Shown here one piece after another: positions 12,586-49,119 of a stretch of DNA of 49,119 nt; the first letter of the stretch is position 1, and each line of letters starts with the position of its first letter. This DNA is from a phage, in the sequence record PZ465523.1; one strand, written 5' to 3'. The translations under genes and the position numbers were made by a program. The notes under the pieces are model-generated. The model ran no database searches, was not told the origin of the DNA, and was given only the letters and a program-made list of their open reading frames with translations.

Positions 12586-12619
12586 TTGCTAAAAATACCC
12601 GGCGAAAGTCGGGTATAGT
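12578..12619 (+). promoter_or_regulatory. Box-type promoter: AGCACTAATTGCTAAAA, 22 nt, TATAGT
   Basis: Hairpin TACCCG-gcgaaagt-CGGGTA inside the spacer. Confidence 0.55.
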
Positions 12620-14573: not shown

Positions 14574-14607
14574 TTGCTAAAAATGCCCGAACGGATTCGG
14601 GTATAGT
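14568..14607 (+). promoter_or_regulatory. Box-type promoter: GCATTAATTGCTAAAA, 22 nt, TATAGT
   Basis: Gene stop TAA embedded in box; hairpin CCCGAA-cgga-TTCGGG in spacer. Confidence 0.55.
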
Positions 14608-16304: not shown

Positions 16305-16350
16305 AATATACCCGATACGAGATCGGGTGTTTTAACAAAAAGTGCTATTT
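16305..16350 (-). promoter_or_regulatory. Box-type promoter: AAATAGCACTTTTTGTTAAAA, 22 nt, TATATT
   Basis: Hairpin CCCGAT-ctcgt-ATCGGG in spacer. Confidence 0.55.
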
Positions 16351-16456
16351 GTATCTTTTTACGTGGAGAAGCAACTCCCCATCTTGGTCGCAAAGATCAT
16401 GCTCGCTGTCGCCGTTGGCTCTCATTGAAGTGAGTAGCAGGCTCAATAATCCTTGT

Positions 16457-16864
16457 TCAAATTCTTCTTTCGTAAGCTGGAGACTTGCGCACAATTCGAC
16501 GTTCCGATCTATCAACGTTTCTACGTTCGCCAAACAATTCCTCATCACTCATTTCTCCAATGTGCATCATTTCCCACGTATATCGATTGTTGTAGCCATC
16601 AATACACATCAGCTTCATCATTACCGGGCGCTTGATCTTTCCCTTGCACCAGTAAAATCCATCATTACGATCCAAGTAACCCTCAGTCACGCAGCGTGCG
16701 CAAAACTCCTTAGATAGCGCGCTTGTAAATTCACGGTGAGTCATCCCGGCGGCCTTAGCAAATCGCTCACTTTCCTTGTGGGCGTATATAAATTTCGCTA
16801 TGTGCTGCCGAGTGTATTTGTCGTAACCTTCGCAGAACCTGAACAGATCCAAAAGAAGAAGCAT
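16457..16864 (-). CDS. Hypothetical Cys-containing protein (135 aa)
   Basis: ORF-track ORF with ATG start 4 nt after upstream stop. Confidence 0.5.
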   Translation of the reverse strand: MLLLLDLFRFCEGYDKYTRQHIAKFIYAHKESERFAKAAGMTHREFTSALSKEFCARCVTEGYLDRNDGFYWCKGKIKRPVMMKLMCIDGYNNRYTWEMMHIGEMSDEELFGERRNVDRSERRIVRKSPAYERRI

Positions 16865-16868
16865 ATTT

Positions 16869-18437: not shown

Positions 18438-18466
18438 CACAATAAACTCCTTAGTTGACGGTGTGA

Positions 18467-18512
18467 ATGATACACCGCCAATGTTACACGCGTTTTGCAA
18501 AAAGTGCTATTG
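18467..18512 (-). promoter_or_regulatory. Box-type promoter: AATAGCACTTTTTGCAAAA, 22 nt, TATCAT
   Basis: Hairpin CGGTGT-atcattc-ACACCG downstream. Confidence 0.5.
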
Positions 18513-18513
18513 G

Positions 18514-18930
18514 TTATAAGTATTTGGCCTCAAAGGTTGTGCCGTCAGCAATACTAAAACCAATCTCTTCGCGGAATAATGTCCAGCGGCAACCGTCCTC
18601 ATCAAAGATGTAACCAGCCACTCCACCGAGAGCGCGACCGCTTTCCACCTGGTAACGCTTGCCAACTTTGAATGATTTTTTCATTGGGTTGCGATGGTCA
18701 AGCCCGGTACACTTGAGTGTTTTGGTTTTAAGTTCAGTGAATTTTGCGAAGAAGATTTCATCAGATCCGTGAATCTGTAATTCATCGTGCTTATCAAGTT
18801 TTAAATACTTACCGCACTTTAACTTAACCTCGCGAGTGCCATCGTAGCGTTCTCGACCTTTGTACATGTTGTTAACTTCAAATCCTGTGATTTTGTCTGC
18901 TGAAGTGCATTTAAGTTTGATGGATTTCAT
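18514..18930 (-). CDS. Cys beta-hairpin repeat family protein (2-3 repeats)
   Basis: Repeats IKLKCTSADKITGFEV / VKLKCGKY / LKCTGLDHRNPMKKSFKVGKRYQV; start at ATG 18930 after CAGGAG. Confidence 0.6.
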   Translation of the reverse strand: MKSIKLKCTSADKITGFEVNNMYKGRERYDGTREVKLKCGKYLKLDKHDELQIHGSDEIFFAKFTELKTKTLKCTGLDHRNPMKKSFKVGKRYQVESGRALGGVAGYIFDEDGCRWTLFREEIGFSIADGTTFEAKYL

Positions 18931-18966
18931 TGCGTTCACTCCTGATTGGTTATCTTGAATAAGGCC

Positions 18967-19013
18967 ACTTTATCAAATGACATTACGTCAATATTAACAA
19001 ATCGTGCTATTTA
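18967..19013 (-). promoter_or_regulatory. Box-type promoter: AAATAGCACGATTTGTTAA, 22 nt, TAAAGT
   Basis: Read on minus strand. Confidence 0.5.
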
Positions 19014-19223
19014 CCAGGGAATATAATCGTCGTCGTCATTATCAACAATATCATCGCCGGGCATCTCGAAGTCGGGATTATATTCACTTTCTGCGTCCAT
19101 ATCCATATTCCCTAGCGCGTCGTCAAGCGTAATTTCTTTATATGCAACCTTGATACACCATTCCGCACTAAGCCCGGCATCGAGCGCGGCAAAATAACGA
19201 GTCCAGAAATTATCCTGTTCCAT
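19011..19223 (-). CDS. Small acidic protein (70 aa)
   Basis: C-terminus DDIVDNDDDDYIPW. Confidence 0.5.
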   Translation of the reverse strand: MEQDNFWTRYFAALDAGLSAEWCIKVAYKEITLDDALGNMDMDAESEYNPDFEMPGDDIVDNDDDDYIPW

Positions 19224-19226
19224 TAA

Positions 19227-19451
19227 TTAGCTCCATGAATTAATGTAAATCGAGTTAGCCTCAAGCGTTGCGCGAACATCCGCATCTGTTGCATTTACTA
19301 AGCGCGATCCTGGTGTGCTGCCAATAACGTTATTACCGTTCCGAGCCTTAGTTACCGTCATTGAAACAAAACCGGAAGGCTTATCCATTTTGATAACTAC
19401 ACGTCCTTTCGCGTTCAGATGCTTGATGATATTCTCAACTTTAATACTCAT
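19227..19451 (-). CDS. Hypothetical protein (74 aa)
   Basis: ORF-track ORF with ATG start. Confidence 0.5.
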   Translation of the reverse strand: MSIKVENIIKHLNAKGRVVIKMDKPSGFVSMTVTKARNGNNVIGSTPGSRLVNATDADVRATLEANSIYINSWS

Positions 19452-19484
19452 TTTTAATTCCTTTATTTCGCTTGGTGTGGGAGT

Positions 19485-19530
19485 AATATACCTTACTCCC
19501 TATTTATTGTCTTTAGCAATTAGTGCTATC
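19485..19530 (-). promoter_or_regulatory. Box-type promoter: GATAGCACTAATTGCTAAA, 23 nt, TATATT
   Basis: Hairpin GGGAGTAA-ggtatat-TTACTCCC. Confidence 0.55.
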
Positions 19531-19672
19531 AGTACTCGGAAATTACTTTGCACTCTTTGATTGTTCCACCTAGAACTACTTTCTGCATCATTGCTTTTTG
19601 GTGACTATCGTAAACGCGAACATTTTTTACGCTGTTAAATTTGCCAGTATAGAAAGTGTGAATATAAATCAT
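19529..19672 (-). CDS. Small protein (47 aa) not in ORF track
   Basis: ATG overlaps upstream stop as ATGA; its own TGA abuts the box TAGCAC. Confidence 0.4.
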   Translation of the reverse strand: MIYIHTFYTGKFNSVKNVRVYDSHQKAMMQKVVLGGTIKECKVISEY

Positions 19673-19989
19673 TTTTTACCGTCCCATGTTTGATACGCCG
19701 TCACAAGGTTAATGCTATGGTCGAACTCGTCAATGCTAAGCGATCCGATTCGAACCAGTTCTTTATCATGCTTAATATCGATCATCCGGCTATATGGATG
19801 ACCTGGCACGTATTTGAACAGTCGCTTACTGTCGGCAATATCAGCGTTGATTCCATAGAATCGGCCCACTGCCGCCTTCACGCGCTCCATGATGTTTTTT
19901 TCGTGGATTGCCGCCGCGTTATTCAATGCCGCGACCGTGCTTCCGTTAATCTTCGGTGATTTAGTTGTGATTTTATAAGTGTGGTTCAT
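19669..19989 (-). CDS. Hypothetical protein (106 aa)
   Basis: Start at ATG 19989 after RBS AGGGGGAA. Confidence 0.55.
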   Translation of the reverse strand: MNHTYKITTKSPKINGSTVAALNNAAAIHEKNIMERVKAAVGRFYGINADIADSKRLFKYVPGHPYSRMIDIKHDKELVRIGSLSIDEFDHSINLVTAYQTWDGKK

Positions 19990-20005
19990 TATTCCCCCTA
20001 ACCAG

Positions 20006-20569
20006 TCAGGATAGCTTTCGCGCTTCATCAATGATAACAGGTTCGAGACGCTCAAGTCGAACGCGGAACGTGTTCATAAATCCTTCGTTATTCTTCAATA
20101 GCTCGAAGGCGTCTGTTGCCTCAATGGCGCTATTTCCCATGTAGGCAACTACGCTCTTTTGCGTCTTGCGTGAGATCGCCACCACGCGGTAAATATTATC
20201 ACTCATACAATGCCTCCTTAACACGGTGCGCAATGCAGGAATTGACGGTGATTGAGTAGTTTGCCACGCCCATAATGCAATATTGCCAAGCTCGGTACGC
20301 ATTGATGGATTGTTAAGCTGGATTATCGTCTCTCCAGTATCTTTATCTACGAAGCGAGACACGCCCAAATGGTCAACCACGCGCGTTACGCGGTTCACGC
20401 ACTCCATTGCATCACTTACGCCGTAATAAGCGCTCAGAGCGGCTCTCACGGCCTTCTCTTGCTTGTTGTAAATCTTGCGCGCTATGTTCTCGATCGCAAT
20501 CTGCTCTTTTTCGTCAGTCTGTATTGCCGTGCTTGCTGAGAAGTCCAAGTCAATGAACTGCTTAAACAT
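20006..20569 (-). CDS. Hypothetical protein (187 aa)
   Basis: Start at ATG 20569 after RBS GAGGAAAG, downstream of box promoter at 20601..20645. Confidence 0.55.
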   Translation of the reverse strand: MFKQFIDLDFSASTAIQTDEKEQIAIENIARKIYNKQEKAVRAALSAYYGVSDAMECVNRVTRVVDHLGVSRFVDKDTGETIIQLNNPSMRTELGNIALWAWQTTQSPSIPALRTVLRRHCMSDNIYRVVAISRKTQKSVVAYMGNSAIEATDAFELLKNNEGFMNTFRVRLERLEPVIIDEARKLS

Positions 20570-20600
20570 GATTCTTTCCTCGTTTGCTGTTGATGGGATG

Positions 20601-20645
20601 ACTATACCAGCCATCCCGGATGCGCGTTTAGCAAAAAGTGCTATC
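20601..20645 (-). promoter_or_regulatory. Box-type promoter: GATAGCACTTTTTGCTAAA, 22 nt, TATAGT
   Basis: Hairpin GGGATG...CATCCC overlapping the -10. Confidence 0.55.
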
Positions 20646-20646
20646 C

Positions 20647-20751
20647 TCAGCGACCAACTGCATCCATAATGATTAAGAACATGATCGCGACCAGGCATCC
20701 TGACAGAGAGAAAAGCACCGATCCAATTGCATAATTAAAAAACTTTGCCAT
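20647..20751 (-). CDS. Small membrane peptide (34 aa)
   Basis: MAKFFNYAIGSVLFSLSGCLVAIMFLIIMDAVGR; RBS GAGGG; stop abuts box. Confidence 0.45.
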   Translation of the reverse strand: MAKFFNYAIGSVLFSLSGCLVAIMFLIIMDAVGR

Positions 20752-20756
20752 AATTA

Positions 20757-20984
20757 CCCTCTGAAACTATCAATTGTGTCGTTGATGTATTTCACTTGAG
20801 CCTCTACGTCAGACGTTGCGATATACTGGAATGTATCGTAATCATCCCACAAGTCGACAAGCTCAACCTTTGTATGATGCTATTTTAAGCCGCCCATGTG
20901 ACCGTAATGTGTGCGGTAGACGATGAATCCCTCATCATTGGCGCGCTGAATTGCTTTCTTTAATCCGGGGTGTTTAATTGCCAC
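20757..20984 (-). pseudogene. Reading frame interrupted by a single in-frame TAG; possible pseudogene or readthrough gene
   Basis: GTG start, 34 codons, TAG at 20880..20882, then 41 more in-frame codons to TAA at 20754..20756. Confidence 0.3.
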
Positions 20985-21015
20985 TTGGTCATTTCTCTGA
21001 TTGGTTGATGTTTTA

Positions 21016-21060
21016 AATATACCCCGATCACCTTCGGGGCGTTTAGCAATTCGTGCTATT
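21016..21060 (-). promoter_or_regulatory. Box-type promoter: AATAGCACGAATTGCTAAA, 22 nt, TATATT
   Basis: Hairpin CCCCGA-aggtga-TCGGGG in spacer. Confidence 0.55.
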
Positions 21061-21394
21061 AATCAATATCGAACTCAGCGGCATACGCTTTCTTGAAGCC
21101 AGCTTCACGCATGGTGCGCTTGCTGATTTTGCGCGGGAATTTGTACTGGCTGTTAGGCATAACCCACCAGAAGCAAGCAGTTTCACGAACGATTTCATAT
21201 TTACCGTAACGGGTGAAGGTGTCACGTTCCGCGTCCGGCTGGTTAACACAGGTCAGGAATTTAGCCGCTTTGTCTTCAGTTTTGATTTCTTCCCATACGA
21301 AGGAATCCATACCGTTAACATTGCAAGCTACCATGATGTACTCAACGCCGTTTTCGATTTTGATGATTTCGTTACCGCGATTTTCGTATTTCAT
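21059..21394 (-). CDS. Hypothetical protein (111 aa)
   Basis: ATG with RBS AGGAGCAGGAAA; C-terminus reads through the box. Confidence 0.5.
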   Translation of the reverse strand: MKYENRGNEIIKIENGVEYIMVACNVNGMDSFVWEEIKTEDKAAKFLTCVNQPDAERDTFTRYGKYEIVRETACFWWVMPNSQYKFPRKISKRTMREAGFKKAYAAEFDID

Positions 21395-21432
21395 TTTCCT
21401 GCTCCTGATGTGTATCTCGTTTCGATGAGGTA

Positions 21433-21478
21433 ATTATGCCAAACTACCCCGATCGAGTTTTAACAAAAAGTGCTATTT
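21433..21478 (-). promoter_or_regulatory. Box-type promoter: AAATAGCACTTTTTGTTAAAA, 22 nt, CATAAT
   Basis: Box encodes the Dcm C-terminus NSTFC and its stop. Confidence 0.55.
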
Positions 21479-22164
21479 GCGATCGCTTTGAAAAATCCAC
21501 GCGGCGACAGGGATCGTATCAGTTTGGTCTTTGCCGACTTGCCGCCCAACTTGCTATGCTGCGCAGAGTACCCTTCAGGAAGGCTTACAGGTTTTCTCTC
21601 CGGCATGACAAAATCGTCCGAGGTCCAAAGACACGTCTTTTTCGGATAAGCATCGCGCGGCGCAATATACATCGGGAACCAGGGATGCGAGTCATTCTCA
21701 GGAAGATAGCCGCCATACTCCCAGGGATTGAATGAGTGATCTGGTTTTCTCCAGGCAGATGACAGAACGCTAACCGGATTCTCAATGATGTAAGTCACGC
21801 CCAGGGCGTCGCCAATATTCGCAGCAATCCGGGCGGTGGCAACGGCCTTCTCCTGGAATAAGGGATTGCGCTTACGCTTACTTGCAAAGTGACGAGCACC
21901 ACTAACAGCCAGGTCAGTGCATGGAGGAAAGGCCATAATGAAATCCGGCTTACCATACACACCCGCAATCGCATCACGTTCGAACGTCTCATCAATGAAG
22001 ACGTTCACATACTCAATGTTCGGATGCTGTACCCGAGCATTGTACTTTGCATAATCTCCGTGATCGGCCCCGTCAAAGTTGAAGCACATCACCTTATGAC
22101 CTTGCTTAGCCAGTTCATGACCAGCAAGGCCGGAACCGTCGAATAGTGACCAAATTAGTTTCAT
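21460..22164 (-). CDS. dcm: DNA cytosine-5 methyltransferase
   Basis: LFDGSGLAG (motif I-like), FPPCTDLAVSG (motif IV PC), IIENP (motif VI ENV); start at ATG 22164 after AGGAGA. Confidence 0.7.
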   Translation of the reverse strand: MKLIWSLFDGSGLAGHELAKQGHKVMCFNFDGADHGDYAKYNARVQHPNIEYVNVFIDETFERDAIAGVYGKPDFIMAFPPCTDLAVSGARHFASKRKRNPLFQEKAVATARIAANIGDALGVTYIIENPVSVLSSAWRKPDHSFNPWEYGGYLPENDSHPWFPMYIAPRDAYPKKTCLWTSDDFVMPERKPVSLPEGYSAQHSKLGGKSAKTKLIRSLSPRGFFKAIANSTFC

Positions 22165-22197
22165 TGCAAATCTCCTGCTGATTGGTTGATGTGATGA

Positions 22198-22242
22198 ATC
22201 ATACCCTGCCAACATAGCTAAGTCGTTAGCAAAAAATGCTAT
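22198..22242 (-). promoter_or_regulatory. Box-type promoter variant: AATAGCATTTTTTGCTAAC, 23 nt, TATGAT
   Basis: Immediately upstream of Dcm leader CAACCAATCAGCAGGAG. Confidence 0.5.
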
Positions 22243-22427
22243 TCCAATAGTTGCTCATTATTCCATCAATAGTGGAATAGTTGGAATAATTTTGATTGTG
22301 ATTGATTGCGAATGATTAAACGTGATTATTGCATTGTGTGCAACAGTTGGTTGATTTGTTGATGAGAATGCAATGATTGTGAGAGGGAGGATTTAGTGTT
22401 ACCCGGTTCGCTTGGTAGTCACCTCCA

Positions 22428-22447
22428 TTTTTAGCAAAAAGTGCTAT
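22428..22447 (-). promoter_or_regulatory. Box GATAGCACTTTTTGCTAAAA without a matching -10 at the usual spacing
   Basis: Distal-most box of the leftward arm, followed by hairpin GGAGG...CCTCC. Confidence 0.45.
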
Positions 22448-22856
22448 CCGTCTATATCTTCGTTGTAATTGTCGTAATAGTTGTATACTATCGGGGGTGT
22501 TACAAAATGGCCCCGAAGGGATGGGCCTATATATACTAAAATATCTATATATAATAATAAGATAGATAATATATATATATTTATTTATTATATTATATAT
22601 TGGTATGTAATCGGCGTAATAGGTGCAACCGCATTTTTGGAAGGTGGCATATATTTCAGGGTGCATAGTATAAAAAACATACTATTCCGCGCGTCGAAAT
22701 GGATGTGTGTGCTTTTATAGAAAAAGTCGGTTGCATCGGTTGCACTGGTTACAAAAATAAAAAATGCAGCTATAGACATTGACGCGCCTAGCCAGGTTGC
22801 TGTAACATGTTTTTCGGGGCGGCAAGTTACGCCCGTAGACAACGAGGTATAGACAA

Positions 22857-24966: not shown

Positions 24967-25173
24967 ATGGCTACACGACTAACTCAGTGGCAGATTTACG
25001 ACAAGGCATCACGCCTTCGTGAATCGCTTCGCGGACTGACGCCGAATGACCGAATGGAGATTATCGGGCACGCATTGCACGAACTCACGCCTCAGGACGT
25101 AATCTATCATTCATGCGGCAATAAATTCTGGAACGTAACATTCGAGGTAAAGAAAGATGAGCAAAACTCATAA
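24967..25173 (+). CDS. Hypothetical protein (68 aa)
   Basis: ATG after conserved leader CAACCAATCAGAGGAATCA. Confidence 0.5.
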   Translation: MATRLTQWQIYDKASRLRESLRGLTPNDRMEIIGHALHELTPQDVIYHSCGNKFWNVTFEVKKDEQNS

Positions 25174-30254: not shown

Positions 30255-30264
30255 TAAACACTAA

Positions 30265-30286
30265 CCCGCTCCGGCGGGTTTTTTTA
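30265..30286 (+). terminator. Rho-independent terminator ending the rightward early operon
   Basis: CCCGC-tcc-GGCGGG stem followed by TTTTTTT. Confidence 0.7.
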
Positions 30287-30303
30287 TGCCTGCAATATGG
30301 TAA

Positions 30304-30322
30304 AATAGCACTAAATGTTAAA
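30304..30322 (+). promoter_or_regulatory. Degenerate box AATAGCACTAAATGTTAAA upstream of terminase small subunit
   Basis: TATGGT hexamer just upstream; RBS AAAGAGG downstream. Confidence 0.4.
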
Positions 30323-37484: not shown

Positions 37485-37512
37485 TTGACGCTTTAACAAA
37501 AAGTGCTATTAT
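37485..37512 (+). promoter_or_regulatory. Sigma70-like promoter (TTGACG, 16 nt, TATTAT) with reversed box in the spacer
   Basis: Read directly; upstream of major capsid gene. Confidence 0.55.
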
Positions 37513-37516
37513 TGAA

Positions 37517-37543
37517 GCCGTGAACATAATCACGGCTTTTTTA
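37517..37543 (+). terminator. Terminator hairpin immediately downstream of capsid promoter
   Basis: GCCGTGA-acataa-TCACGGC followed by TTTTTT; probable start site lies inside the left arm. Confidence 0.6.
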
Positions 37544-40122: not shown

Positions 40123-40510
40123 GTTATCAGCGGCGGCGCGAGCCGCCTTTCTGTCGAAGTATAGAGACTTTCCTCACTACATGGAAAACAGGAACTTTAC
40201 ACCGCCGAAGGATGGCGGAATGTGGCTAAGGTTCAACTACATTGAAGGGGATACGCTTTATCTATCAATTGACAGAAAGTGTAAATCTTACATCGCAATC
40301 GTTCAGATCGGCGTAGTGTTCCCTCCAGGCTCCGGCGTTGATGAGGCAAGATTGAAAGCAAAAGAGATTGCCGATTTTTTCAAAGATGGTAAAATGCTTA
40401 ACGTTGGTTATATTTTTGAGGGTGCAATCGTGCATCAAATTGTTAAACATGAAAGCGGATGGATGATTCCAGTTCGTTTCACGGTACGAGTAGACACAAA
40501 GGAGACTTAA
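40112..40510 (+). CDS. Tail completion-like protein
   Basis: Position immediately before major tail protein. Confidence 0.45.
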   Translation: MHYELSAAARAAFLSKYRDFPHYMENRNFTPPKDGGMWLRFNYIEGDTLYLSIDRKCKSYIAIVQIGVVFPPGSGVDEARLKAKEIADFFKDGKMLNVGYIFEGAIVHQIVKHESGWMIPVRFTVRVDTKET

Positions 40511-40512
40511 TT

Positions 40513-41181
40513 ATGCACTTACCAAATGGCGCGCAAATTTTCGTGGAAACCTCTCGCGGAGAAGAGATTGAGGCGACCGCTGTCACTAACGCAAAAAATC
40601 CTGTTGCTACAGTTGCATCTAAGGGCGACATGGCAAAAGGTGATTACGTTATTGTAACTCAGTCAACTTGGGCTAAGATGGTTAGTCGGGTATTGATTGT
40701 TACTGACGCTCAGGGAACAAGAATTACTCTTGCTGGAATTGACACTACTGATACTCTTGTTTTCCCGGCTGGCGGTAAGATGAGCTTTGCAAAAGTTACT
40801 GGCTGGACTGAGATTCCTTGCGTACAGGAGATTGGTCAGGACGGCGGCGAACAGCAGTACTACACTTATCAGTGTTTGTCCGACGATAAGGAGCAGCAGA
40901 TCCCGACATTTAAATCTGCGATCTCACTAACTTACACCTTCGCGCACGAATTTGATAACCCGATCTATCCAATTCTGCGTAAGCTAGATTCTTCTGGTCA
41001 GGTAACTGCGGTTCGTATGTATGTTCCAAAAGCGAACGAGATGCGCATGTGGGCTGGAATCTTGTCTTTTAACGACATTCCATCTACGCAAGTAAACGAA
41101 ATGGAAACAGTACAACTCGCCGTATCCCTGAAAGGTGATTTTACTTTCGTCTCATCCACTCTGGCATCTCCAGGAGCCTAA
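40513..41181 (+). CDS. Major tail protein
   Basis: 222 aa; RBS AGGAGA; followed by terminator and tail chaperone genes. Confidence 0.65.
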   Translation: MHLPNGAQIFVETSRGEEIEATAVTNAKNPVATVASKGDMAKGDYVIVTQSTWAKMVSRVLIVTDAQGTRITLAGIDTTDTLVFPAGGKMSFAKVTGWTEIPCVQEIGQDGGEQQYYTYQCLSDDKEQQIPTFKSAISLTYTFAHEFDNPIYPILRKLDSSGQVTAVRMYVPKANEMRMWAGILSFNDIPSTQVNEMETVQLAVSLKGDFTFVSSTLASPGA

Positions 41182-41193
41182 ATCACATCCATA

Positions 41194-41220
41194 GGGGGCT
41201 TGCGCCCCCTTCTTCATTTC
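41194..41220 (+). terminator. Terminator after major tail gene
   Basis: GGGGGC-ttgc-GCCCCC stem followed by T-rich tract. Confidence 0.6.
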
Positions 41221-41254
41221 TGTAGAATCATCGTATCAACTTTATTCACTTCAC

Positions 41255-41274
41255 TTTTAACAAAAAGTGCTATC
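41255..41274. promoter_or_regulatory. Reversed box TTTTAACAAAAAGTGCTATC directly before tail chaperone leader
   Basis: Followed by CAACCAATCAGGAGAA and ATG. Confidence 0.5.
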
Positions 41275-41293
41275 AACCAATCAGGAGAACATC

Positions 41294-41611
41294 ATGGCTA
41301 AATTCAATTTTGTGCTGGGCCAGCTTCCAGACTTCAAACTTCCGGTTACTTTCACCATGCCAAACGGTGAAGATGCTACGATTATTTTTACCGTACGCCA
41401 CCTTTCCAGCAAAGAAGTACAGGATATGTACACTAAGCAGGGAGAAATGAATGATAGCGATTTTATCACCAAGATCGCGTCCGGTTGGAATATTGAAGAA
41501 GAATTTAACGAAGAGAACGCGCGAAAACTGGTCCAGTATTACCCTTCCGCAGCGTACAATCTGACAGCCACTTATATTAAGGCTCTCGCCGGACACCGCG
41601 CAAAAAACTAA
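41294..41611 (+). CDS. Tail assembly chaperone (lambda G-like)
   Basis: Position between major tail and tape measure genes; acidic protein; ends just after slippery heptamer. Confidence 0.65.
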   Translation: MAKFNFVLGQLPDFKLPVTFTMPNGEDATIIFTVRHLSSKEVQDMYTKQGEMNDSDFITKIASGWNIEEEFNEENARKLVQYYPSAAYNLTATYIKALAGHRAKN

Positions 41612-41928
41612 AAAGGGCGGTTTATCTGTTATATCAGAAACCGCCGACAGAAGAGCAATTACGATCGGTTGGCCTTAGTCTTTCTGACTATGAGGACGAA
41701 GAACCGGAGACGATAATCGGCGACGCTGAGATGGTTAAGTCGTGGAATGTTTTTACGTCAATGCTAACTCAGTGGAGAAGTTCAGGCGCTGGCGCTTATG
41801 GTCTTGATTATAATGTTTTGCCTATGTTGTTCAAAATCTATAAAATAGATGATGAAGAACTGGCATTGCAGGACGTTAGAATCATGGAAGCGAAAGCGCT
41901 TGAAATGATTGCTAAGCAGAATAACTAA
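41294..41928 (+). CDS. Tail assembly chaperone frameshift product (GT-like), via -1 shift at A_AAA_AAC 41602..41608
   Basis: -1 frame is open from slippery site to stop at 41928; hairpin GGCGG...CCGCC starts 8 nt downstream. Confidence 0.55.
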
Positions 41929-41950
41929 GCCGCCGTTTGGCGGTTTTTTC
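41929..41950 (+). terminator. Terminator-like hairpin before tape measure gene
   Basis: GCCGCC-gtttg-GCGG followed by TTTTTT. Confidence 0.5.
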
Positions 41951-41966
41951 GTATATAGGGGACTAT

Positions 41967-44840
41967 ATGATTGATAAAGTAGCAGGTTTGTCTCTTGACG
42001 TTGACGTGTCAACAGTACAGCGCGCAGTCAAGTCACTGAAGGAGTTTTCAAGGGCCAACGACCAGGCCGCTGACTCTATGGGATCTTTGATCAATGAGGC
42101 AGAAGTAGCGAAGCAGAAGGCTAAAGAACACGCAGAACAACTCAAGCGACAGAGAAAAGAGTACGAAGCGGTAGAGAAAGCAATCGATCCTACAGTTGCA
42201 AAAATGGAGAGGTTAAAAGTTGCTTCCCAGCAGCTTGATAAACTCTGGCAGCAAGGCGTCGTTCCAGATGACACGTTTTTCCGTTTAGGTGAAATGCTGG
42301 ATATGCAAAACGCAAAACTTGCTCGCAGTCGGGCGATGCTGACGGAAGAGGGTCAGGCTGCATTGCAGGAAGCGAAAGCAAAAGAGCAGGCGGCAGCACG
42401 AAGCAAGGCATTCATGGATGCCCTGAATGGTCAAGTTAACGCGATCGGCAAGACTCACGCTGAATTGATGGAACTGAAAGCGGCTGAGCTTGGCTTATCG
42501 AAAGAAGCAGCGCCACTAATCGCAAAACTGAAAGATCAGGGTCGGGCAATGAATGCCGCAGGTATTAGCGCAGGGCAATATAGGCAGGCAATGCGAATGC
42601 TTCCTGCACAGATTACAGACGTCGTTACATCTCTTGCGTCCGGTATGCCAGTTTGGATGGTTGCCATCCAGCAAGGCGGCCAAATCAAGGATTCTTTCGG
42701 CGGGATCGGCAACACGTTTAAGGTATTGCTCAGTTATATTAATCCGGTCACAGCAGGTATTGGTGTTCTTGTCGGCTCTTTAGGTCTTCTTGCGAAAGCT
42801 GGTTATGACTCTTACAAGTCAATCACTGATATGCAAAACGCCCTCATTGAGACTGGCGGTTATGCAGGCGTTACGGCTGATGACCTTGATTCTGTTGCCA
42901 AAAAGATCGCACAGACAAGCAACTCAACCGTTGGAAGTGTTCGTGATATTGTAACGGAGTTGGCGAGTTCTGGTAAGTACACCCGCGAGCAGATCAAGAA
43001 CATCACTAAGGCGACGGCTGAGTGGTCGTCAGCAACTGGAAAATCAGCAAGCCAAATCATTGCTGAGTTCGACAAAATCGCAAGCGATCCGGTTAAAGGT
43101 CTGGAGAAGTTAAACGAACAATATAACTTCCTGGAGAAAGGACAACTGACATATATCGACACGCTAAGCCGCACTAAGGGTGAGACTGAGGCGGTGTCTG
43201 AAGCCACGAAATTATTCGCAGAAGTTATGGAGAAGCGAATGAAGTCGATCGCAGACAATGCCACACCTCTTGAAAAAATGTGGAACGATATTAAGCAGTG
43301 GGCATCTGATGCGTGGGGATGGGTAGGGGATCATACTCTCGGGGCGCTTAACCTGATTATTGATGTGGTTCAGGGTACAGTGATTCAGGTAAAAATGATT
43401 CTTGCGAAAGGTGATGAGTACATCTCAAACTTTATCGCATCTGCAATCAAGGCCACGCAATCCCTGCCTGGCATGAGTGATTTTGGTGCCGATGTGCTGA
43501 AGGAGCAGGAGAACATCGTAAAAAGTTCTCGCGACAACTACGACCAGTTGGCATCCGAGCTTGACGCTATTAACGCTCGTGTAGAAAAAGGAGAGATGGG
43601 ATACGTTGAAGCGATGAAGCAGCGCCGCACTCTTGAAAAGCAGTACAGTGAGGAAACTAAGGAAGCAATAAGGAAAGAAGCTGAAGAGATCGAGAAGCGA
43701 AACCGAGAGCGAAATAAGCAGTCGAAAATTGTACGTTCACCGACAGAGCAATTCGACAAGGAGTTAATTTCACTCAAAGCGCAGCTTAAGGTTTTGCAGG
43801 AGCACAAGGGGATCGGGCAAAAACTTTCCGCACAGAGAAAGGCGCTTTTTACAACCGAGGCTACGATTGCTGTTCTTCGTGAAGCCAGTTCTAAGCGTCA
43901 GTTGTCTACGGAAGAAAAAGCACTACTTGCAAACCAGGAGAAAGTTTTAGAGCTTGCGAAACAGAAGGCTGAGATTGGCGATCAGATTGTTAAGCAGCAG
44001 CAGTTGAACGCTCTTACCGATAAATCACTGAAATTTGTCAATGATTTGACGGCAGCTACAGAGCAGCTAAACGCGTCTCGCGGGATGAGCACCCGAGAAA
44101 TGGAGCGACAAGCTGAGTTGGCTAAGATCACCACTGATTATATTAATGCAGGTGGCAGCGAAGGAGATGAGAAACTCCAGAACATGATCAAGGCACAAAA
44201 TGATTACTATGCCGCTGAAGATGCCAAGCGTGCTGACTGGTTGGCAGGTGCTGAAAGCGCATTTGCAGATTACGGCGATTCTGCAATGGATATGTATGGT
44301 AACGTATATGATATCGCGTCAAGTTCACTTAACGGAATGAGTGATATGATGACCCAATTCCTGACTACAGGTAAGGCAAACTTTGAGGACTTTGCGAAAA
44401 ACATCATTAGCATGATTATAAAGATGATTGCTCAGATGGTAATCTTCAATACGATCTCAGGCATGATGGGCGGTAAGACGTGGAGCTTTGCTGGAGTGGC
44501 GTCGTCTGGTGCTTCTGTGGCATCACAGGCAACTCCTACGCCTGCCGCCTCCGGTTTTAGGTCTTTATCATCTGGCGTTGCTGTTACCTCGCTTGCTGCC
44601 GCAGCTGGTAGTGTGGCAACATCTGGATTTAACGCATCTAAAGCAGCGCCGAAGGCAGTAAACCAATCAGCAGGTGGGACGGTCGTTGACGTTAGGGGTA
44701 TGGAGGTTAAAGTTGACAACGGTTCAGATCCGAGAGGCATTTCTCAGGGTGTAGAAATGATGTTCAAAAAAATGATTCGTGAGTCTTGTTCTCAGGGCGG
44801 CGAGGTTTATAATTACATTCAGGAAAAAACAGGAGGTTAA
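41967..44840 (+). CDS. Tail tape measure protein
   Basis: 958 aa; long coiled-coil region and Gly/Ser/Ala-rich C-terminal part. Confidence 0.8.
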
Positions 44841-44842
44841 TA

Positions 44843-45196
44843 ATGGCGACACTTGACACTTTCGGTTGGTGTACGCAGGTTCAAGGGGGCGGTGGCTCCC
44901 TTACCACTACCAATAACGACCGCTCCATCCAGTTTGGTAATGGCTACATGCAGCTTGCATTGTCTGGATTTAACACCACTCGACGCGAGTATTCAGTTGT
45001 CTATGCCGGGGAAGATTTCATGGATGTTTACGACTTCTGCGATTCTCACCGCATTAAGCCGTTCGCATGGATGCCGCCGGACGGGAAGATCGGGATATGG
45101 GTTGTCAAGCCTAACAGCCTGGGAGCGAAGCCAGTATCACGCGACGTGATGGAGATTAACGTAACGTTTATTGAGCAGTTTACATCTATGAAATAG
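44843..45196 (+). CDS. Minor tail protein (lambda M-like)
   Basis: Size and position after tape measure; RBS AGGAGG. Confidence 0.65.
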   Translation: MATLDTFGWCTQVQGGGGSLTTTNNDRSIQFGNGYMQLALSGFNTTRREYSVVYAGEDFMDVYDFCDSHRIKPFAWMPPDGKIGIWVVKPNSLGAKPVSRDVMEINVTFIEQFTSMK

Positions 45197-45212
45197 CGCC
45201 ACATAACAAAAG

Positions 45213-45234
45213 CCCGCCTTGCGCGGGTTTTTTT
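45213..45234 (+). terminator. Rho-independent terminator (cassette copy 1)
   Basis: CCCGCCTTGCGCGGG followed by TTTTTTT, then TAGAAT. Confidence 0.7.
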
Positions 45235-45275
45235 GTAGCTGTAGAATGGTTGCTGGTAAACAAGAGGAAAAATCA

Positions 45276-46058
45276 ATGAGCGAAAACAAAAAACTTTATG
45301 ATGAAGAAAGCGGGAGAAGCCTGTTTCACAACTGCCTACAATCACTGTATCCTGGCGAGATAATCACCCTTATTGAAGTTGATGGTAGTAAGTTCGGTGC
45401 TCAGGTGTACAGATTCCACGGGGAGAATATCCAGTACACTCCAGAAGAAATCATGCAGGCCCAGCAAACAGGAACGCTGCCGCCGAAAGAAATTACCTTC
45501 CGTGGCGAGCAATACGGCGCAAGACCTTTTGGTATATCAGGGATCTCGTTCGACAGTTCAGGCAAGGCTACAAAACCACAATTAACGGTAGCAAACATTG
45601 ATAGTAGAGTGTCTGCGATGATTCGCGCGTATAACGGATTGATGCAGGCGAAGGTGACAATCTGGATCACTCAAAAGGACTTAATTAAACCTGATGGCTC
45701 AATCGCTGACGGTGCTTATCGGAAGCTGGTATACTATATCGAACGCCCGAGCTATGTCGATAAGAGCGTTGCAAGATTCGATCTCACGTCGCCGTATGAT
45801 ATGGATGGAATCATGATACCGTCACGACTCACGCAAAGCGTTTGCTATTGGGCGCAGCGTGGCTGGTATAAAACCGGGAAAGGTTGCGGATACAACGGGC
45901 AAAACGGTTACTTTGACAAAGACAATAATCCTGTAGATGATCCCGCGCTCGACTTCTGCCCGGGAACGGTAACTGCCTGCCGCCTTCGGTTCGGTGCAAA
46001 CAATGAATTGGATTTTGGCGGCTGTGCTGTCGCTTCACTACAGAGGAAAAATCAATGA
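45276..46058 (+). CDS. Minor tail protein (lambda L-like)
   Basis: Cys cluster near C-terminus; start after RBS AAGAGGAAA. Confidence 0.65.
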   Translation: MSENKKLYDEESGRSLFHNCLQSLYPGEIITLIEVDGSKFGAQVYRFHGENIQYTPEEIMQAQQTGTLPPKEITFRGEQYGARPFGISGISFDSSGKATKPQLTVANIDSRVSAMIRAYNGLMQAKVTIWITQKDLIKPDGSIADGAYRKLVYYIERPSYVDKSVARFDLTSPYDMDGIMIPSRLTQSVCYWAQRGWYKTGKGCGYNGQNGYFDKDNNPVDDPALDFCPGTVTACRLRFGANNELDFGGCAVASLQRKNQ

Positions 46059-46789
46059 TTAGTGCAAAAATTAAACTTGAAATCATGACCCACGCTCAAG
46101 AAGAATACCCCCGCGAATGCTGCGGGGTAGTTACCCAAAAGGGCCGGGTGCAAAAATACCATAGAGTCGATAATGTGCATCGTGATCCTGAAAATCATTT
46201 CATGATGGATGCTGTGCAGTACGCATGTATTGAGGACGACGCGGAATCAACCACGATCGCAATTGTTCATAGTCATACCGGGGACGGAGCTACAACTCTT
46301 CCAAGCGCTCACGATACGTGCATGTGTAATGAGATGGAGGTGACCTGGGTTATTGTTAGCGTACCGGAAGGAGATATGCGATTTGTGAAGCCTGAGAAAT
46401 TACCTCTGATTGGTCGTCCGTGGTCGTTAGGCTCATTTGACTGTTACGGTCTTGTTATGGCTTGGCACAAAGAGCACGGCGTAGAATTGCGCGATCGAAG
46501 GTTGAATTTTGAATGGTGGAAACCGGAATATGGAATTAATCTCTATCAGGATTATTACAAGCAAGATGGATTCGTTGAGATTCCAGATCAGAATAATCCG
46601 TCGCTCGGTGATATGGTAATCATGCAGATAGGGCAAAATGTTCCGGTGTGGAACCATGCAGGGATTTACCTGGGTGATAATCAGATCTTGCATCACGCAT
46701 TCGGAAAGCTATCACGTCGTGATATTTATTCCGGCTGGTATCAGGATCACACGGTTTTAATTGTTCGCCATAAGGATCTTAAATTATGA
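46055..46789 (+). CDS. Tail assembly protein (lambda K-like), MPN/JAB plus NlpC/P60-like
   Basis: JAMM-like HSHTGD motif and Cys/His-containing C-terminal domain. Confidence 0.7.
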   Translation: MISAKIKLEIMTHAQEEYPRECCGVVTQKGRVQKYHRVDNVHRDPENHFMMDAVQYACIEDDAESTTIAIVHSHTGDGATTLPSAHDTCMCNEMEVTWVIVSVPEGDMRFVKPEKLPLIGRPWSLGSFDCYGLVMAWHKEHGVELRDRRLNFEWWKPEYGINLYQDYYKQDGFVEIPDQNNPSLGDMVIMQIGQNVPVWNHAGIYLGDNQILHHAFGKLSRRDIYSGWYQDHTVLIVRHKDLKL

Positions 46790-47385
46790 ATGATGTAAAA
46801 GTAATCAAATTATCCGGTTCGCTTGGTAGGCGCTTCGGGGTCTTTCACCGCTTTGCTGTTGACTCTTACCCGGAAGCCATTCGTGCACTATCCAGTCAGG
46901 TAGATGGATTTAAAGAATACATGCAGAGCGAGGTGGGATCACGTAGCAAGTTTGCAATATTTGTAGATGGCGTTAACGTTGGACACCATGAAGAGGAAAA
47001 ATTCAAGTGCGCCAAAGAGATAAGGATTGTCCCGATCCCGACTGGTTCTAAGTCCGGCGGTCTATTCCAGGTTGTATTGGGTGCGGCAATAATGGTTGCG
47101 GCATTCTATACTGGCGGCGCATCTCTGGCGTTAATGGGCGCAATGTCCTCATCACTGTTTATGATGGGCGGCGCTATGGTGCTGGGAGGCGTGATGCAGA
47201 TGATTTCACCGCAGCCCGGAGGGGCAAACTTTGAAGTTCAATCAAGCAAGAATAAACCTTCGTACGCGTTCGGTGGTGCTGTCAATACGACTGCGGCGGG
47301 ATACCCTCTCCCGGTCCCGTATGGATATCGCGCCGGAGGTGGCGCAACTTTCTCAGCAGGTTCTTATGCTGAGGATATGAGTTAA
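46786..47385 (+). CDS. Tail assembly protein (lambda I-like)
   Basis: Gly/Ala/Met-rich hydrophobic C-terminal half. Confidence 0.65.
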   Translation: MNDVKVIKLSGSLGRRFGVFHRFAVDSYPEAIRALSSQVDGFKEYMQSEVGSRSKFAIFVDGVNVGHHEEEKFKCAKEIRIVPIPTGSKSGGLFQVVLGAAIMVAAFYTGGASLALMGAMSSSLFMMGGAMVLGGVMQMISPQPGGANFEVQSSKNKPSYAFGGAVNTTAAGYPLPVPYGYRAGGGATFSAGSYAEDMS

Positions 47386-47391
47386 AATATA

Positions 47392-47414
47392 CCCGCCTTG
47401 CGCGGGTTTTTTTT
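47392..47414 (+). terminator. Rho-independent terminator (cassette copy 2)
   Basis: Same stem CCCGCCTTGCGCGGG followed by TTTTTTTT. Confidence 0.7.
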
Positions 47415-47420
47415 CGCCTG

Positions 47421-47447
47421 TATAATGGGTTCACAGATAAATAGCAC
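47421..47447 (+). promoter_or_regulatory. Promoter before J-like gene: TATAAT followed by AATAGCAC half-box
   Basis: Read directly. Confidence 0.5.
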
Positions 47448-47462
47448 AAAAAGGTAAACACC

Positions 47463-49119
47463 ATGATTCAAAAAGTGATAAGCGGATCGAAAGGCGGTTC
47501 ATCTAAGCCGCATAAGCCAGTTGAGATGGAAGATAATCTAATCTCAATCAACAAAATCAAGATCCTGTTAGCTGTGTCTGATGGCGAGATTGACGAAACA
47601 TTCAGCCTAAAGCAGTTGATGTTTAACTCAGTCCCTGTGCAAAACGAGGATGGCTCATTTAACTTCGAGGGAGTAAATGCAGAGTTTAGGCCGGGGACGC
47701 AGACTCAGGAATATATCAAGGGGATGGAAGATAGCTCTAGTGAGGTAACTGTAAGCCGTGAGGTTACTACAGATAACCCATACACGATCTCAGTAACCAA
47801 CAAAACGCTTTCGGCAATCCGTATCAAAATGTTTATGCCTCGCGGCGTACGAATTGAAAGCAACGGTGATAAAAACGGCGTAAGAGTTGAGTATGAGGTG
47901 CAACAAGCTGTTGATGGCGGCTCGTTTGAGACGGTGCTCACCGATGTAATCGAAGGCAAAACAATGTCAGGTTATGATCGAAGCAGACGCATAAACCTTC
48001 CGAGCTTTAACAATCAGGTGATATTCAGAGTCGTTCGCAAAACTCCAGACTCTAACGATTCGAACGTGGTCGATGCTATTCAAGTGAAAAGCTACGCCGA
48101 GGTGATTGATGCAAAATTCCGTTACCCTCTGACTGGTCTTCTTTTCGTCGAGTTCGATTCGAAGATGTTCCCAAATCAGTTACCTACGATCTCAATTCGT
48201 AAGCGCTGGAAGATTGTAAACGTTCCGTCAAACTATGATCCAGAATCACGAACTTATAACGGAAATTGGGATGGAACTTTTAAGAAGGCGTGGACTAATA
48301 ATCCGGCTTGGGTGCTTTATGACCTGATGATTAATCAGCGTTATGGGCTGGATCAGAAAGAGCTTGGAATATCTGTCGATAAATGGGCGCTATATGAGGC
48401 GGCGCAATATTGCGACCAGATGGTTCCTGACGGAAAAGGCGGTACTGAGCCTCGCTACCTTTGCGACGTGATAATTCAGTCACAGACTGATGCGTACAAG
48501 GTGATTCGAGATATTTGCTCAATCTTCCGTGGAATGAGCTTTTGGAATGGTGAAAGCATTTCGGTAATCATCGACAGGCCGCGTGAACCTGCGTACATCT
48601 TCACTAACGACAACGTTGTTAACGGTGACTTCTCCTATACTTTCGCAAGCGAGAAAAGTATGTACACGACGTGCAACGTGATGTTTGATGATGAACAAAA
48701 CATGTATCAGCAGGACGTTGAGCCAGTATTCGATCGAGAAGCCACTCTACGGTTCGGGAATAACGTAACAAGCATTACAGCGATCGGGTGCACACGTCGA
48801 AGTGAAGCTAACCGTCGCGGACGATGGATTCTGAAAACAAACCTTCGCAGCACTACGGTAAACTTTGCTACCGGGCTTGAGGGTATGATTCCGACAATTG
48901 GAGATGTTGTAGCGATAGCTGATAACTTCTGGTCAAGTAACTTGACTATGAACCTGTCAGGGCGTTTGCTCGAAGTGTCTGGAAGTCAGATTTTCCTGCC
49001 GTTCCGCGTTGATGCTCGCGCAGGTGACTTTATTATCGTAAATAAGCCCGATGGCAAGCCCGCGAAGCGCACAATCTCAAGTGTTAGTGCGGATGGTAAG
49101 ACTATAGAGGTTAACATCG
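47463..49119 (+). CDS. Tail tip / host specificity protein (lambda J-like), N-terminal part; runs off window end and continues at 1..1884
   Basis: No stop before window end; frame continuous with 1..1884 through the repeat; about 1139 aa in total. Confidence 0.8.
   Translation, partial: MIQKVISGSKGGSSKPHKPVEMEDNLISINKIKILLAVSDGEIDETFSLKQLMFNSVPVQNEDGSFNFEGVNAEFRPGTQTQEYIKGMEDSSSEVTVSREVTTDNPYTISVTNKTLSAIRIKMFMPRGVRIESNGDKNGVRVEYEVQQAVDGGSFETVLTDVIEGKTMSGYDRSRRINLPSFNNQVIFRVVRKTPDSNDSNVVDAIQVKSYAEVIDAKFRYPLTGLLFVEFDSKMFPNQLPTISIRKRWKIVNVPSNYDPESRTYNGNWDGTFKKAWTNNPAWVLYDLMINQRYGLDQKELGISVDKWALYEAAQYCDQMVPDGKGGTEPRYLCDVIIQSQTDAYKVIRDICSIFRGMSFWNGESISVIIDRPREPAYIFTNDNVVNGDFSYTFASEKSMYTTCNVMFDDEQNMYQQDVEPVFDREATLRFGNNVTSITAIGCTRRSEANRRGRWILKTNLRSTTVNFATGLEGMIPTIGDVVAIADNFWSSNLTMNLSGRLLEVSGSQIFLPFRVDARAGDFIIVNKPDGKPAKRTISSVSADGKTIEVNI
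48999..49119. repeat. Terminal direct repeat, copy 2; identical to 1..121
   Basis: Exact identity read directly. Confidence 0.9.

Follow-up and report, generated by a model that had tools for sequence, protein, structure and literature searches.

Gene context and layout of the two cassettes

The window, that is, the whole stretch of 49,119 nucleotides that was analysed, belongs to the genus Tunavirus and is about 91% identical to phage T1 over the queried tail region. The part of the tail operon considered here contains the following features, in which P(L) and P(J) denote the putative promoters of L and J.

44843 to 45196, + strand: minor tail protein M gene (Pfam PF05939, E 1.5e-23), last gene of the H-M unit, 5' of cassette A
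45213 to 45227, + strand: terminator hairpin of cassette A, CCCGC-cttgc-GCGGG, extendable from 45208 by A/U pairs; T1 RefSeq terminator 22793-22816
45219 to 45224, + strand: TTGCGC, putative -35 of P(L), formed by bases of the loop and 3' arm of the hairpin, 17 nt from TAGAAT
45228 to 45234, + strand: T-run of cassette A, 7 T, which also lies within the 17-nt spacer of the putative promoter
45242 to 45247, + strand: putative -10 of P(L), TAGAAT, with a predicted start near 45254
45276 to 47385, + strand: L-K-I tail-tip gene block
45276 to 46058, + strand: L (Pfam PF05100)
46055 to 46789, + strand: K (Pfam PF14464 and PF00877)
46786 to 47385, + strand: I (Pfam PF06805)
47392 to 47406, + strand: terminator hairpin of cassette B, identical in sequence to that of A; T1 RefSeq terminator 24972-24994
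47398 to 47403, + strand: TTGCGC, putative -35 of P(J), likewise formed by bases of the loop and 3' arm, with a 17-nt spacer to TATAAT
47407 to 47414, + strand: T-run of cassette B, 8 T, also within the promoter spacer
47421 to 47426, + strand: putative -10 of P(J), TATAAT, with a predicted start near 47433
47439 to 47459, + strand: degenerate copy of aaATAGCACnnnTTGnTAAAA, a repeat that recurs throughout the phage (repeat family D8); it lies in the leader of J, where it overlaps the ribosome-binding site of that gene
47463 to 49119, + strand: tail-tip gene J, 5' portion, cut off by the end of the window (Pfam PF24801 and PF13550)

The sequence CCCGCCTTGCGCGGG followed by a T-run was found on the + strand at 45213-45227 (A) and 47392-47406 (B) only, and even with 2 mismatches it occurred at no third position of the window (chance expectation, about 0.08). 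Cassette A follows the stop codon of M (45196, with the hairpin from 45213) and cassette B that of I (47385, with the hairpin from 47392), both co-oriented with the genes. The occurrence at two sites of an identical stem plus T-run and then a -10-like hexamer, as proposed in the first-pass annotation, was thus confirmed, with TAGAAT at 45242-45247 and TATAAT at 47421-47426. The hexamer begins 7 nt after the T-run in A and 6 nt after it in B, so that it lies 14 nt from the end of the stem in both. The repeat is larger than the stem, since positions 45204-45249 and 47383-47428 share 80% identity over 46 nt (family D10). A search of the whole window against Rfam at the gathering threshold returned 0 matches.

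Other terminators with or without a hexamer were found elsewhere in the window:

41193 to 41228, + strand: third module built like A and B, 3' of the tail-tube gene, with hairpin AGGGGGCTTGCGCCCCCT; T1 terminator 18770-18796
41927 to 41946, + strand: terminator without a promoter at the junction of the chaperone genes and the tape-measure gene, running directly into the ribosome-binding site; T1 terminator 19508-19527
30263 to 30306, + strand: weaker relative of the cassettes, 5' of the gene for the small terminase, composed of hairpin AACCCGCTCCGGCGGGTT, a T-run and TGgTAAAAT; T1 terminator 8322-8344

The module at the V-G junction combines TTGCGC (41200-41205), a 17-nt spacer and TAGAAT (41223-41228) with a stem different from that of A and B, and its geometry is kept in relatives. 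In the module 5' of the small terminase gene the extended -10-like sequence TGgTAAAAT occupies 30298-30306, while similarity to family D10 spans 30255-30300. At most other late junctions in the window the terminator is followed at once by the ribosome-binding site; thus, the additional ∼25 nt are retained only where a hexamer is present.

Both hairpins have the features of intrinsic terminators

Both A and B consist of an all-GC stem of 5 to 6 bp, a 5-nt loop and a run of 7 or 8 T. Short segments comprising them gave folding energies of -13.7 and -10.1 kcal/mol, respectively, with z values of about -2.6 to -2.7 against shuffled sequences. In a simple consensus scan, B came out as terminator-like on the + strand and A on the - strand only; a separate hairpin scan placed both on the + strand.

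Terminators are annotated at the corresponding coordinates in T1 and SA30RD, and in TLS as T46 and T49. T1 (NC_005833) has the same genes, positions and hairpins, its 22793-22816 and 24972-24994 corresponding to window positions 45213-45236 and 47392-47414; its database record lists terminators and no promoters. In TLS, T46 (gccgccattgtgcggc) and T49 (cccgccgttgcgcggg) are the orthologous M-L and I-J terminators, and an ATAGCAC repeat (DR8), to which the repeat at 47439-47459 is equivalent, follows T49 (PMC11447400, Table S1). The two TLS hairpins are unlike each other, and their sequences were present in loci L019 and L025 of our set.

Among 80 relatives, 11 distinct hairpin sequences were found per site, and every stem was perfect. 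Swaps from C-G to G-C occurred at stem pairs 1, 4 and 5, in agreement with conservation of structure over sequence. For this count the pairs were numbered from the T-run by a script, given that loop lengths vary and the MAFFT alignment of the hairpins is out of structural register. Taken together, the sequence comparisons support A and B as genuine, conserved intrinsic terminators, and the terminator half of the first-pass annotation is borne out by these conserved hairpins and their annotation in T1 and SA30RD. Termination efficiency at the two sites is here a matter of prediction; a literature search on T1-like phages and Drexlerviridae found no Term-seq, 5'-end or 3'-end transcript mapping.

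A -10-like hexamer is conserved downstream of the terminators

In about 80 related Drexlerviridae loci, a hairpin, a T-run and a TAnAAT hexamer were present at both the M-L and the I-J junctions, the exceptions being L047 and L052, in which the M-L junction keeps the terminator and lacks the hexamer. An information profile anchored on the hexamer has positions 2 and 6 of that hexamer forced by the choice of anchor, and was replaced by a MAFFT alignment anchored on the hairpin together with a test of variability within the genus. In this otherwise free alignment, TAGAAT, TATAAT, TACAAT, GATAAT and TATGAT lined up as a conserved block between variable flanks. At the I-J junction, TATAAT or TACAAT was found in all relatives with sequence recovered there, save the disordered pair L041/L043. 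The automatic B-site match in L052 was discarded as a hairpin within a gene, the true site lying at 4091 of that locus.

The variation within the hexamer follows the pattern of a sigma70 -10 element, with A2, A5 and T6 fixed and position 3 free. TAGAAT agrees with the consensus at 5 of 6 positions and TATAAT at all 6, and both have the form TAnnnT. Most lineages carry TTGCGC, TTGTGC, TTGCGG, TTTACG or TTTCGG, and do so at a distance of exactly 17 nt 5' of the hexamer. The 17-nt spacer was found in 10 of 14 architectures, while the T-run varied from 5 to 9 nt and the remainder from 5 to 10 nt in a compensating manner. In the window, TTGCGC has the TTG and matches 3 of 6 positions of the -35 consensus at exactly 17 bp; the threshold of the consensus scan is 4 of 6, and for this reason neither cassette was listed as promoter-like. 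In the Rtp-like group the -35 candidates at the I-J site are poor (TAGCCT).

Within Tunavirus, none of the 35 columns of the A core (45213-45247) was variable, compared with a variability of ∼0.5 at third codon positions and 0.29 to 0.44 in the adjacent intergenic sequence. The B core had 9 variable columns, 8 of which were due to a single genome. As a control, the identical hairpin plus T-run was examined in about 45 unrelated phage contexts, and only about 2 of them contained a hexamer with at least 5 of 6 matches at an offset of 10 to 18. Thus, a hexamer does not simply come with the terminator. An antiterminator or other alternative RNA fold involving the hexamer was considered and rejected, the z values of the whole intergenic regions being unremarkable (-0.94 and 0.08) and their secondary hairpins weak and rich in G-U pairs.

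T1-like phages encode neither an RNA polymerase nor a sigma factor (PMC11447400), and the published promoters in this family are all in silico predictions. By the sequence pattern described above, we infer promoter activity at A and B, that is, at the putative P(L) and P(J). The terminator-promoter cassette of the first-pass annotation is therefore the preferred interpretation, given that the hexamer is a conserved block in divergent relatives and has a TTG 17 nt upstream. Ordinary sigma70 promoters ahead of the tail genes are not enough to account for late timing.

Origin of the identity between A and B

The first-pass annotation treated the two cassettes as a duplication. The identity of the A and B hairpins was confined to the genus Tunavirus, the other genera having different hairpins at the two sites, and a hairpin identical to A and B was also found in unrelated phages, so that a shared sequence by itself says little in favour of duplication. 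When the Tunavirus A cassette was compared with those of other genera, its seven nearest neighbours were all of the B type (0.79 to 0.89), the best A-type cassette reaching 0.75, in a comparison of strongly constrained sequences of only ∼37 nt. The Tunavirus M-L cassette thus groups with those that other genera have at I-J, and it is for this reason that the two copies look duplicated. Similarly, the flank of the L038 B cassette, GTAGCTGTATAATG, is almost identical to the flank of A in Tunavirus. The I-J-type cassette at the M-L junction could have arisen by replacement, by conversion or by convergence on the same optimum.

Proposed function and alternative explanations

Each cassette is probably best read as a compact, dual-purpose element, in which a terminator is combined with a sigma70-type promoter for the host RNA polymerase. 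At the RNA level, the GC hairpin with its tail of 7 or 8 U would act as a rho-independent terminator and stop the transcript of the upstream tail genes at least in part. At the DNA level, the loop and 3' arm of the same hairpin would provide the -35 (TTGCGC) of a sigma70-type promoter, the 17-bp spacer would be made up of the remaining stem bases, the T-run and 6 to 7 bases beyond it, and TAGAAT or TATAAT would serve as the -10. Transcription would then begin anew about 7 nt past the hexamer, at around 45254 and 47433, and the leader of 22 to 31 nt would contain the ribosome-binding site for L or J. In this manner the lambda-like tail operon would be split by the modules and the promoter-less terminators into V, G-T, H-M, L-K-I and J.

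It is also conceivable, if somewhat unlikely, that A and B are terminators and nothing else, acting as leaky attenuators in one long late transcript from which L-K-I and J would be expressed purely by read-through. The TAnAAT hexamer would then be kept for a role other than initiation, for example in the tuning of termination or as an element of the leader RNA. The records of T1, SA30RD and TLS, which annotate terminators alone, are in agreement with this, as are the ability of L047 and L052 to cope without the M-L hexamer, the prevalence elsewhere of late junctions with a terminator and an immediate ribosome-binding site, and the weak -35 missed by the consensus scan. Within Tunavirus all the bases that separate the T-run from the hexamer are likewise invariant, and a similar motif, G(C/T)C(C/T), lies 3' of the hairpin in unrelated phages, which hints at a constraint on termination downstream of the stem. 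However, this explanation is hard to reconcile with the sigma70 -10 signature in the conservation within the hexamer, with a TTG held at 17 nt through compensating changes in length, and with a hexamer that is missing from unrelated contexts of the same terminator and takes part in no alternative RNA structure. At the M-L junction of L047 and L052, for its part, the promoter is evidently dispensable, and read-through alone can supply L-K-I.

Quite improbable, in our judgement, is a coupled mode in which RNA polymerase left on the DNA after termination re-initiates at the built-in promoter, giving separate mRNAs from units that depend on upstream transcription. Such retention of E. coli RNA polymerase and re-initiation at the nearest promoter, known as recycling termination or facilitated re-initiation, is described for bacterial genomes at terminator-promoter distances of up to ∼1 kb, as outlined in PMC11347151 (Kang et al. 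2020; Harden et al. 2020). At A and B, the terminator and the putative promoter physically overlap instead. The putative start lies just ∼20 to 25 nt from the release site, a weak -35 would suit a promoter in need of locally delivered polymerase, and the design is kept at three tail junctions; on the other hand, for these sequences the scheme is entirely inferential, sigma70 would have to rebind, and an ordinary independent promoter fits the same data. It is likewise unlikely that the fusion is deliberate, with the -35 placed in the loop and the T-run used as spacer for on-the-spot re-initiation, so as to yield a chain of mRNAs coupled to upstream transcription without a phage late activator or antiterminator. 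A use of the cassettes as recombination linkers, that is, as boundaries for homologous exchange of L-K-I or J tail modules, is highly improbable. The cassettes are indeed better conserved than the flanking coding DNA, and that of A in Tunavirus resembles the B cassettes of other genera, but direct repeats around essential genes would favour lethal deletions and the identity shared by A and B covers only ∼23 nt. This idea was rejected when 14 Tunavirus genomes showed no step in identity at either cassette, with ∼88 to 94% on both sides.

Under the preferred reading of a combined terminator and promoter, A and B delimit L-K-I, as had been proposed in the first-pass annotation. The attribution of this partition to a private duplication has to be revised, since the design is found throughout the family and again at 41193, and promoter-less terminators such as that at 41927 make the partition finer. 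The cassettes may have an effect on protein ratios; the suggested role in setting the stoichiometry between units is partly undercut by L047 and L052, in which the M-L junction has a terminator without a promoter.

Comparison with known systems

The late region of T1 has been described as a series of 'transcriptons', bounded by terminators and provided with RpoD promoters (Roberts et al. 2004, as related in PMC11447400). In silico, L-K-I would qualify as such a unit, with terminators at 45213 and 47392 and the putative P(L) at 45219-45247. A stringent re-annotation of TLS predicted no promoter at the equivalent sites and did not confirm the transcriptons (PMC11447400). The terminator-promoter finding is real and probably functional, and is largely already known from the T1 annotation and the published transcripton view. 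To our knowledge, the hexamer pattern, the 17-nt spacing and the control contexts provide the first cross-genus evidence for selection on the promoter half. The overlap of a putative promoter with the terminator at three tail junctions bears on the question, left by the 2024 re-annotation of TLS, of whether transcriptons are real. Should the promoters be confirmed, phage engineering would gain compact natural insulator-plus-promoter parts from the cassettes, and tests of polymerase recycling after termination would gain a handy natural substrate.

The late operon of lambda has the same order of tail genes (V-G-T-H-M-L-K-I-J) and the same protein families. Lambda late genes are expressed as a single transcript from PR' under Q antitermination, and the ratios of their proteins are set mainly by translation. 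In contrast, the tail operon of the window is punctuated by terminators, three of which have an overlapping promoter-like element, and we know of no Q-type antiterminator in T1-like phages. A comparable economy is found in the overlap of the E. coli frd terminator and the ampC attenuator, where the same DNA forms a terminator hairpin and contributes to the neighbouring promoter region. There the promoter precedes the hairpin, an arrangement closer to that at window positions 37485-37539 than to that of A and B.

The paired cassettes around the L, K, and I genes

The window is the complete genome of a T1-like phage of the genus Tunavirus, family Drexlerviridae, and the part of its tail region queried (44800-47600) showed 98% identity to vB_EcoS_SA30RD and 91% to T1. 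A perfect 121-nt terminal direct repeat (window 1-121 and 48999-49119) is probably an assembler overlap from a circularly permuted, terminally redundant genome and not a biological repeat. The tail gene names used in the first-pass annotation were borne out by Pfam.

Tail genes of the window, assigned with Pfam
40459-41181, tail tube (V)
41267-41611, chaperone (G)
41937-44840, tape measure (H)
44843-45196, M
45276-46058, L
46055-46789, K (JAB plus NlpC/P60)
46786-47385, I
from 47463, J

The 15-mer CCCGCCTTGCGCGGG lies on the + strand at 45213-45227, in the M-L junction (cassette A), and at 47392-47406, in the I-J junction (cassette B); no further copies were found in the window with up to 2 mismatches allowed (∼0.08 matches expected by chance). 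After each copy comes a T-run (7 T in A, 8 T in B), with a hexamer 14 nt past the stem, TAGAAT at 45242-45247 in A and TATAAT at 47421-47426 in B. The identical stem, T-run, and -10-like hexamer previously described at both sites were thus correct. The likeness exceeds the stem, with 80% identity over 46 nt between 45204-45249 and 47383-47428, and a third, weaker copy of the repeat is found at 30255-30300. The folding energies of the A and B hairpins were -13.7 and -10.1 kcal/mol, respectively, with z values of about -2.6 to -2.7 versus shuffled sequences.

Conservation of the terminators

As terminators, the two elements are already known: both are annotated in T1, SA30RD, and TLS. The rho-independent terminators at 22793-22816 and 24972-24994 of the T1 RefSeq record correspond exactly to window 45213-45236 and 47392-47414, the SA30RD record carries the same two, and the TLS re-annotation includes their orthologues, T46 and T49, the latter followed by an ATAGCAC repeat named DR8 (PMC11447400).

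Eighty Drexlerviridae loci around gpL homologues (64 to 100% protein identity) were compared by a strict scan, in which stems had to be perfect, 5 bp or longer, and immediately followed by TTTT. Of the 80 loci, 71 gave a hairpin at the M-L junction and 72 at the I-J junction. Most junctions that were missed nevertheless bear a hairpin and failed for minor reasons: the T-run is interrupted in seven M-L junctions, of the type seen in locus L036, and among the I-J junctions four Rtp-like ones have a C ahead of the T-run and the stem of one contains a single mismatch. The remaining cases were incomplete loci, together with L015, where the junction is truncated, L051, where the sequence context differs, and L013, where the hairpin is destroyed. 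Eleven distinct hairpin sequences were present per site (e.g., CCCGC/GCGGG, GCCGC/GCGGC, GCGCCC/GGGTGC, and GCCTGGGGGC/GCCTCCGGGC), with C-G to G-C swaps at stem pairs 1, 4, and 5. Hairpin structure, not sequence, is what the relatives keep, which supports these being real terminators.

Natural variants occur. In L013 (∼5100-5150) the I-J hairpin is destroyed (CCCGCTCCGCATTCA), with T8, CGCCTG, and TATAAT intact. The M-L junction of L015 (∼2930-3000) has no T-run or hexamer and is missing roughly 40 codons from the start of L, a possible deletion or assembly error. In L017, the T-runs at both junctions are 2 nt longer than in close relatives, giving 19-nt spacers, likely a homopolymer sequencing error.

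A promoter-like element on the terminator

For the promoter half, the stem's 3' end was the only anchor, and the sequences were otherwise aligned freely with MAFFT. TAGAAT, TATAAT, TACAAT, GATAAT, and TATGAT aligned as a conserved block with variable flanking bases; hexamer positions 2, 5, and 6 were fixed and position 3 was free, as in the known sigma70 -10 pattern (a hexamer-anchored information profile forces positions 2 and 6 by its anchoring). The -35 candidate of most lineages, TTGCGC, TTGTGC, TTGCGG, TTTACG, or TTTCGG, is exactly 17 nt upstream of the hexamer and lies within the hairpin loop and 3' arm. The T-run (5 to 9 nt) and the next segment (5 to 10 nt) vary in compensating pairs (5+10, 6+8, 7+7, 8+6, and 9+5), and 10 of the 14 architectures have a spacer of 17 nt between TTGnnn and the hexamer.

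Within Tunavirus, none of the 35 columns of the A core, from hairpin through hexamer, was variable, compared with ∼0.5 for third codon positions and 0.29 to 0.44 for adjacent intergenic bases; of 9 variable columns in the B core, 8 are due to a single genome, in which the hairpin is destroyed. As a control, the exact hairpin plus T6 was retrieved from 103 IMG/VR stretches, many of them unrelated contigs. In ∼45 unrelated contexts a hexamer (at least 5/6 match, offset 10 to 18) appeared only about twice, while at Drexlerviridae A and B sites with the exact hairpin it was always at offset 14. A third site, at 41193-41228 after the tail-tube gene, likewise has TTGCGC, 17 nt, and TAGAAT with CTG ahead, conserved in relatives. 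The other late terminators (32488, 36662, 38530, 38866, and 41927) run straight into a ribosome-binding site, leaving no room for a promoter.

Among the viral stretches with the exact hairpin plus T6 (loci L084 to L185), roughly half of the unrelated contexts have, 1 to 3 nt after the T-run, G(C/T)C(C/T), as in acGCCCg, gtGCCTa, and atGCCTg; the same occurs at window sites A, B, and C.

Several observations argue against a promoter. The -35 agrees with only 3 of 6 consensus positions and is poor at the Rtp-like I-J site, and a consensus scan listed neither promoter. In L047 (∼2945-3000) and L052 (∼1490-1550), the M-L terminator GCCTCC..GGGGGC leads directly into the L ribosome-binding site and start codon with no hexamer, so that read-through can suffice there; these two lineages show the promoter half to be dispensable at this junction. 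Late timing is also left unexplained by a plain sigma70 promoter.

No promoter is annotated at either junction in T1 or in the 40 phage records sampled, no transcript mapping for T1-like phages was found in the literature, and the published promoters of relatives are software predictions; the promoter half is thus a published idea, unconfirmed. Taking together the alignment, hexamer pattern, spacing, constraint, control, third site, and junction types, a putative sigma70-type promoter overlapping the terminator is the best reading.

The feature is real, probably functional, and conserved family-wide. The comparison shows conservation of an intrinsic-terminator structure and, on the same bases, of a promoter-like geometry. 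Upstream transcripts would end in the T-run, and host sigma70 holoenzyme would start new ones near 45254 and 47433, whose short leaders would carry the ribosome-binding sites. A terminator placed right over the promoter would guard it from occlusion by read-through polymerases. Since Escherichia coli polymerase can stay on the DNA once a hairpin has terminated transcription and start again at the nearest promoter (PMC11347151), the overlap could, more speculatively, couple downstream units to upstream transcription. Such working is compatible with the role in setting transcript stoichiometry proposed in the first-pass annotation. The main content, terminators and modular late transcription, was already known, and the comparative support for a promoter overlapping the terminator adds modestly to it.

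Relationship between the two cassettes

The cassettes had been regarded as a duplication. A and B share their sequence only in Tunavirus, and in other genera the two sites differ (A-versus-B identity, 89% in the window and 49 to 76% elsewhere). All seven cassettes closest to Tunavirus A were of the I-J type, with B of locus L038 at 0.87, and the best M-L-type match to A reached only 0.75. Tunavirus A also has four B-type features: the outer C-G pair, the CTTGC loop, no ATTG past the T-run, and CTG before the hexamer. These neighbours and features favour an I-J-type cassette having replaced or converted the M-L cassette in the Tunavirus ancestor. Convergence is also possible, given how short and constrained the cassette sequences are and that unrelated phages have the same hairpin too.

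A role of the cassettes as recombination linkers found no support, with no identity step at either cassette among 14 genomes.

Phage-wide repeat and other overlaps

The repeat ATAGCAC-N5-TG(C/T)TAAA, already described for TLS, has 22 copies (+ strand, 7502-30305; - strand, 16348-22447). In the early and middle regions it is fixed ∼22 nt upstream of TGnTATAGT-type extended -10 elements, a constant distance that suggests a candidate upstream promoter or activator element. A degenerate aaATAGCACnnnTTGnTAAAA copy at 47439-47459, corresponding to DR8 of TLS and at the same position in most genera, lies 12 nt past the -10 of the putative J promoter and overlaps the J ribosome-binding site; unlike the other copies, it would be downstream of the transcription start.

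Two inverted copies fall within the late (+ strand) region, one at 41256-41274, between the promoter of the site after V and the G ribosome-binding site and conserved in relatives, and one at 37492-37510, ahead of the major capsid gene. On the - strand, an extended -10-like element lies 22 nt downstream of each copy, so antisense promoters directed toward the tail-tube gene and the upstream head genes are possible.

Just upstream of the major capsid gene, 37485-37539 holds a promoter-like TTGACG, 16 nt, and TATTAT with an extended -10 TG, directly followed by a terminator-like hairpin (37514-37539), the opposite order to cassettes A and B. Another form of overlap occurs at 12596-12615 and 14584-14603, where early-promoter spacers contain a GC hairpin directly before the -10 (e.g., TACCCGGCGAAAGTCGGGTA and then TAGT), and the opposite strand reads as hairpin plus T-run terminators.
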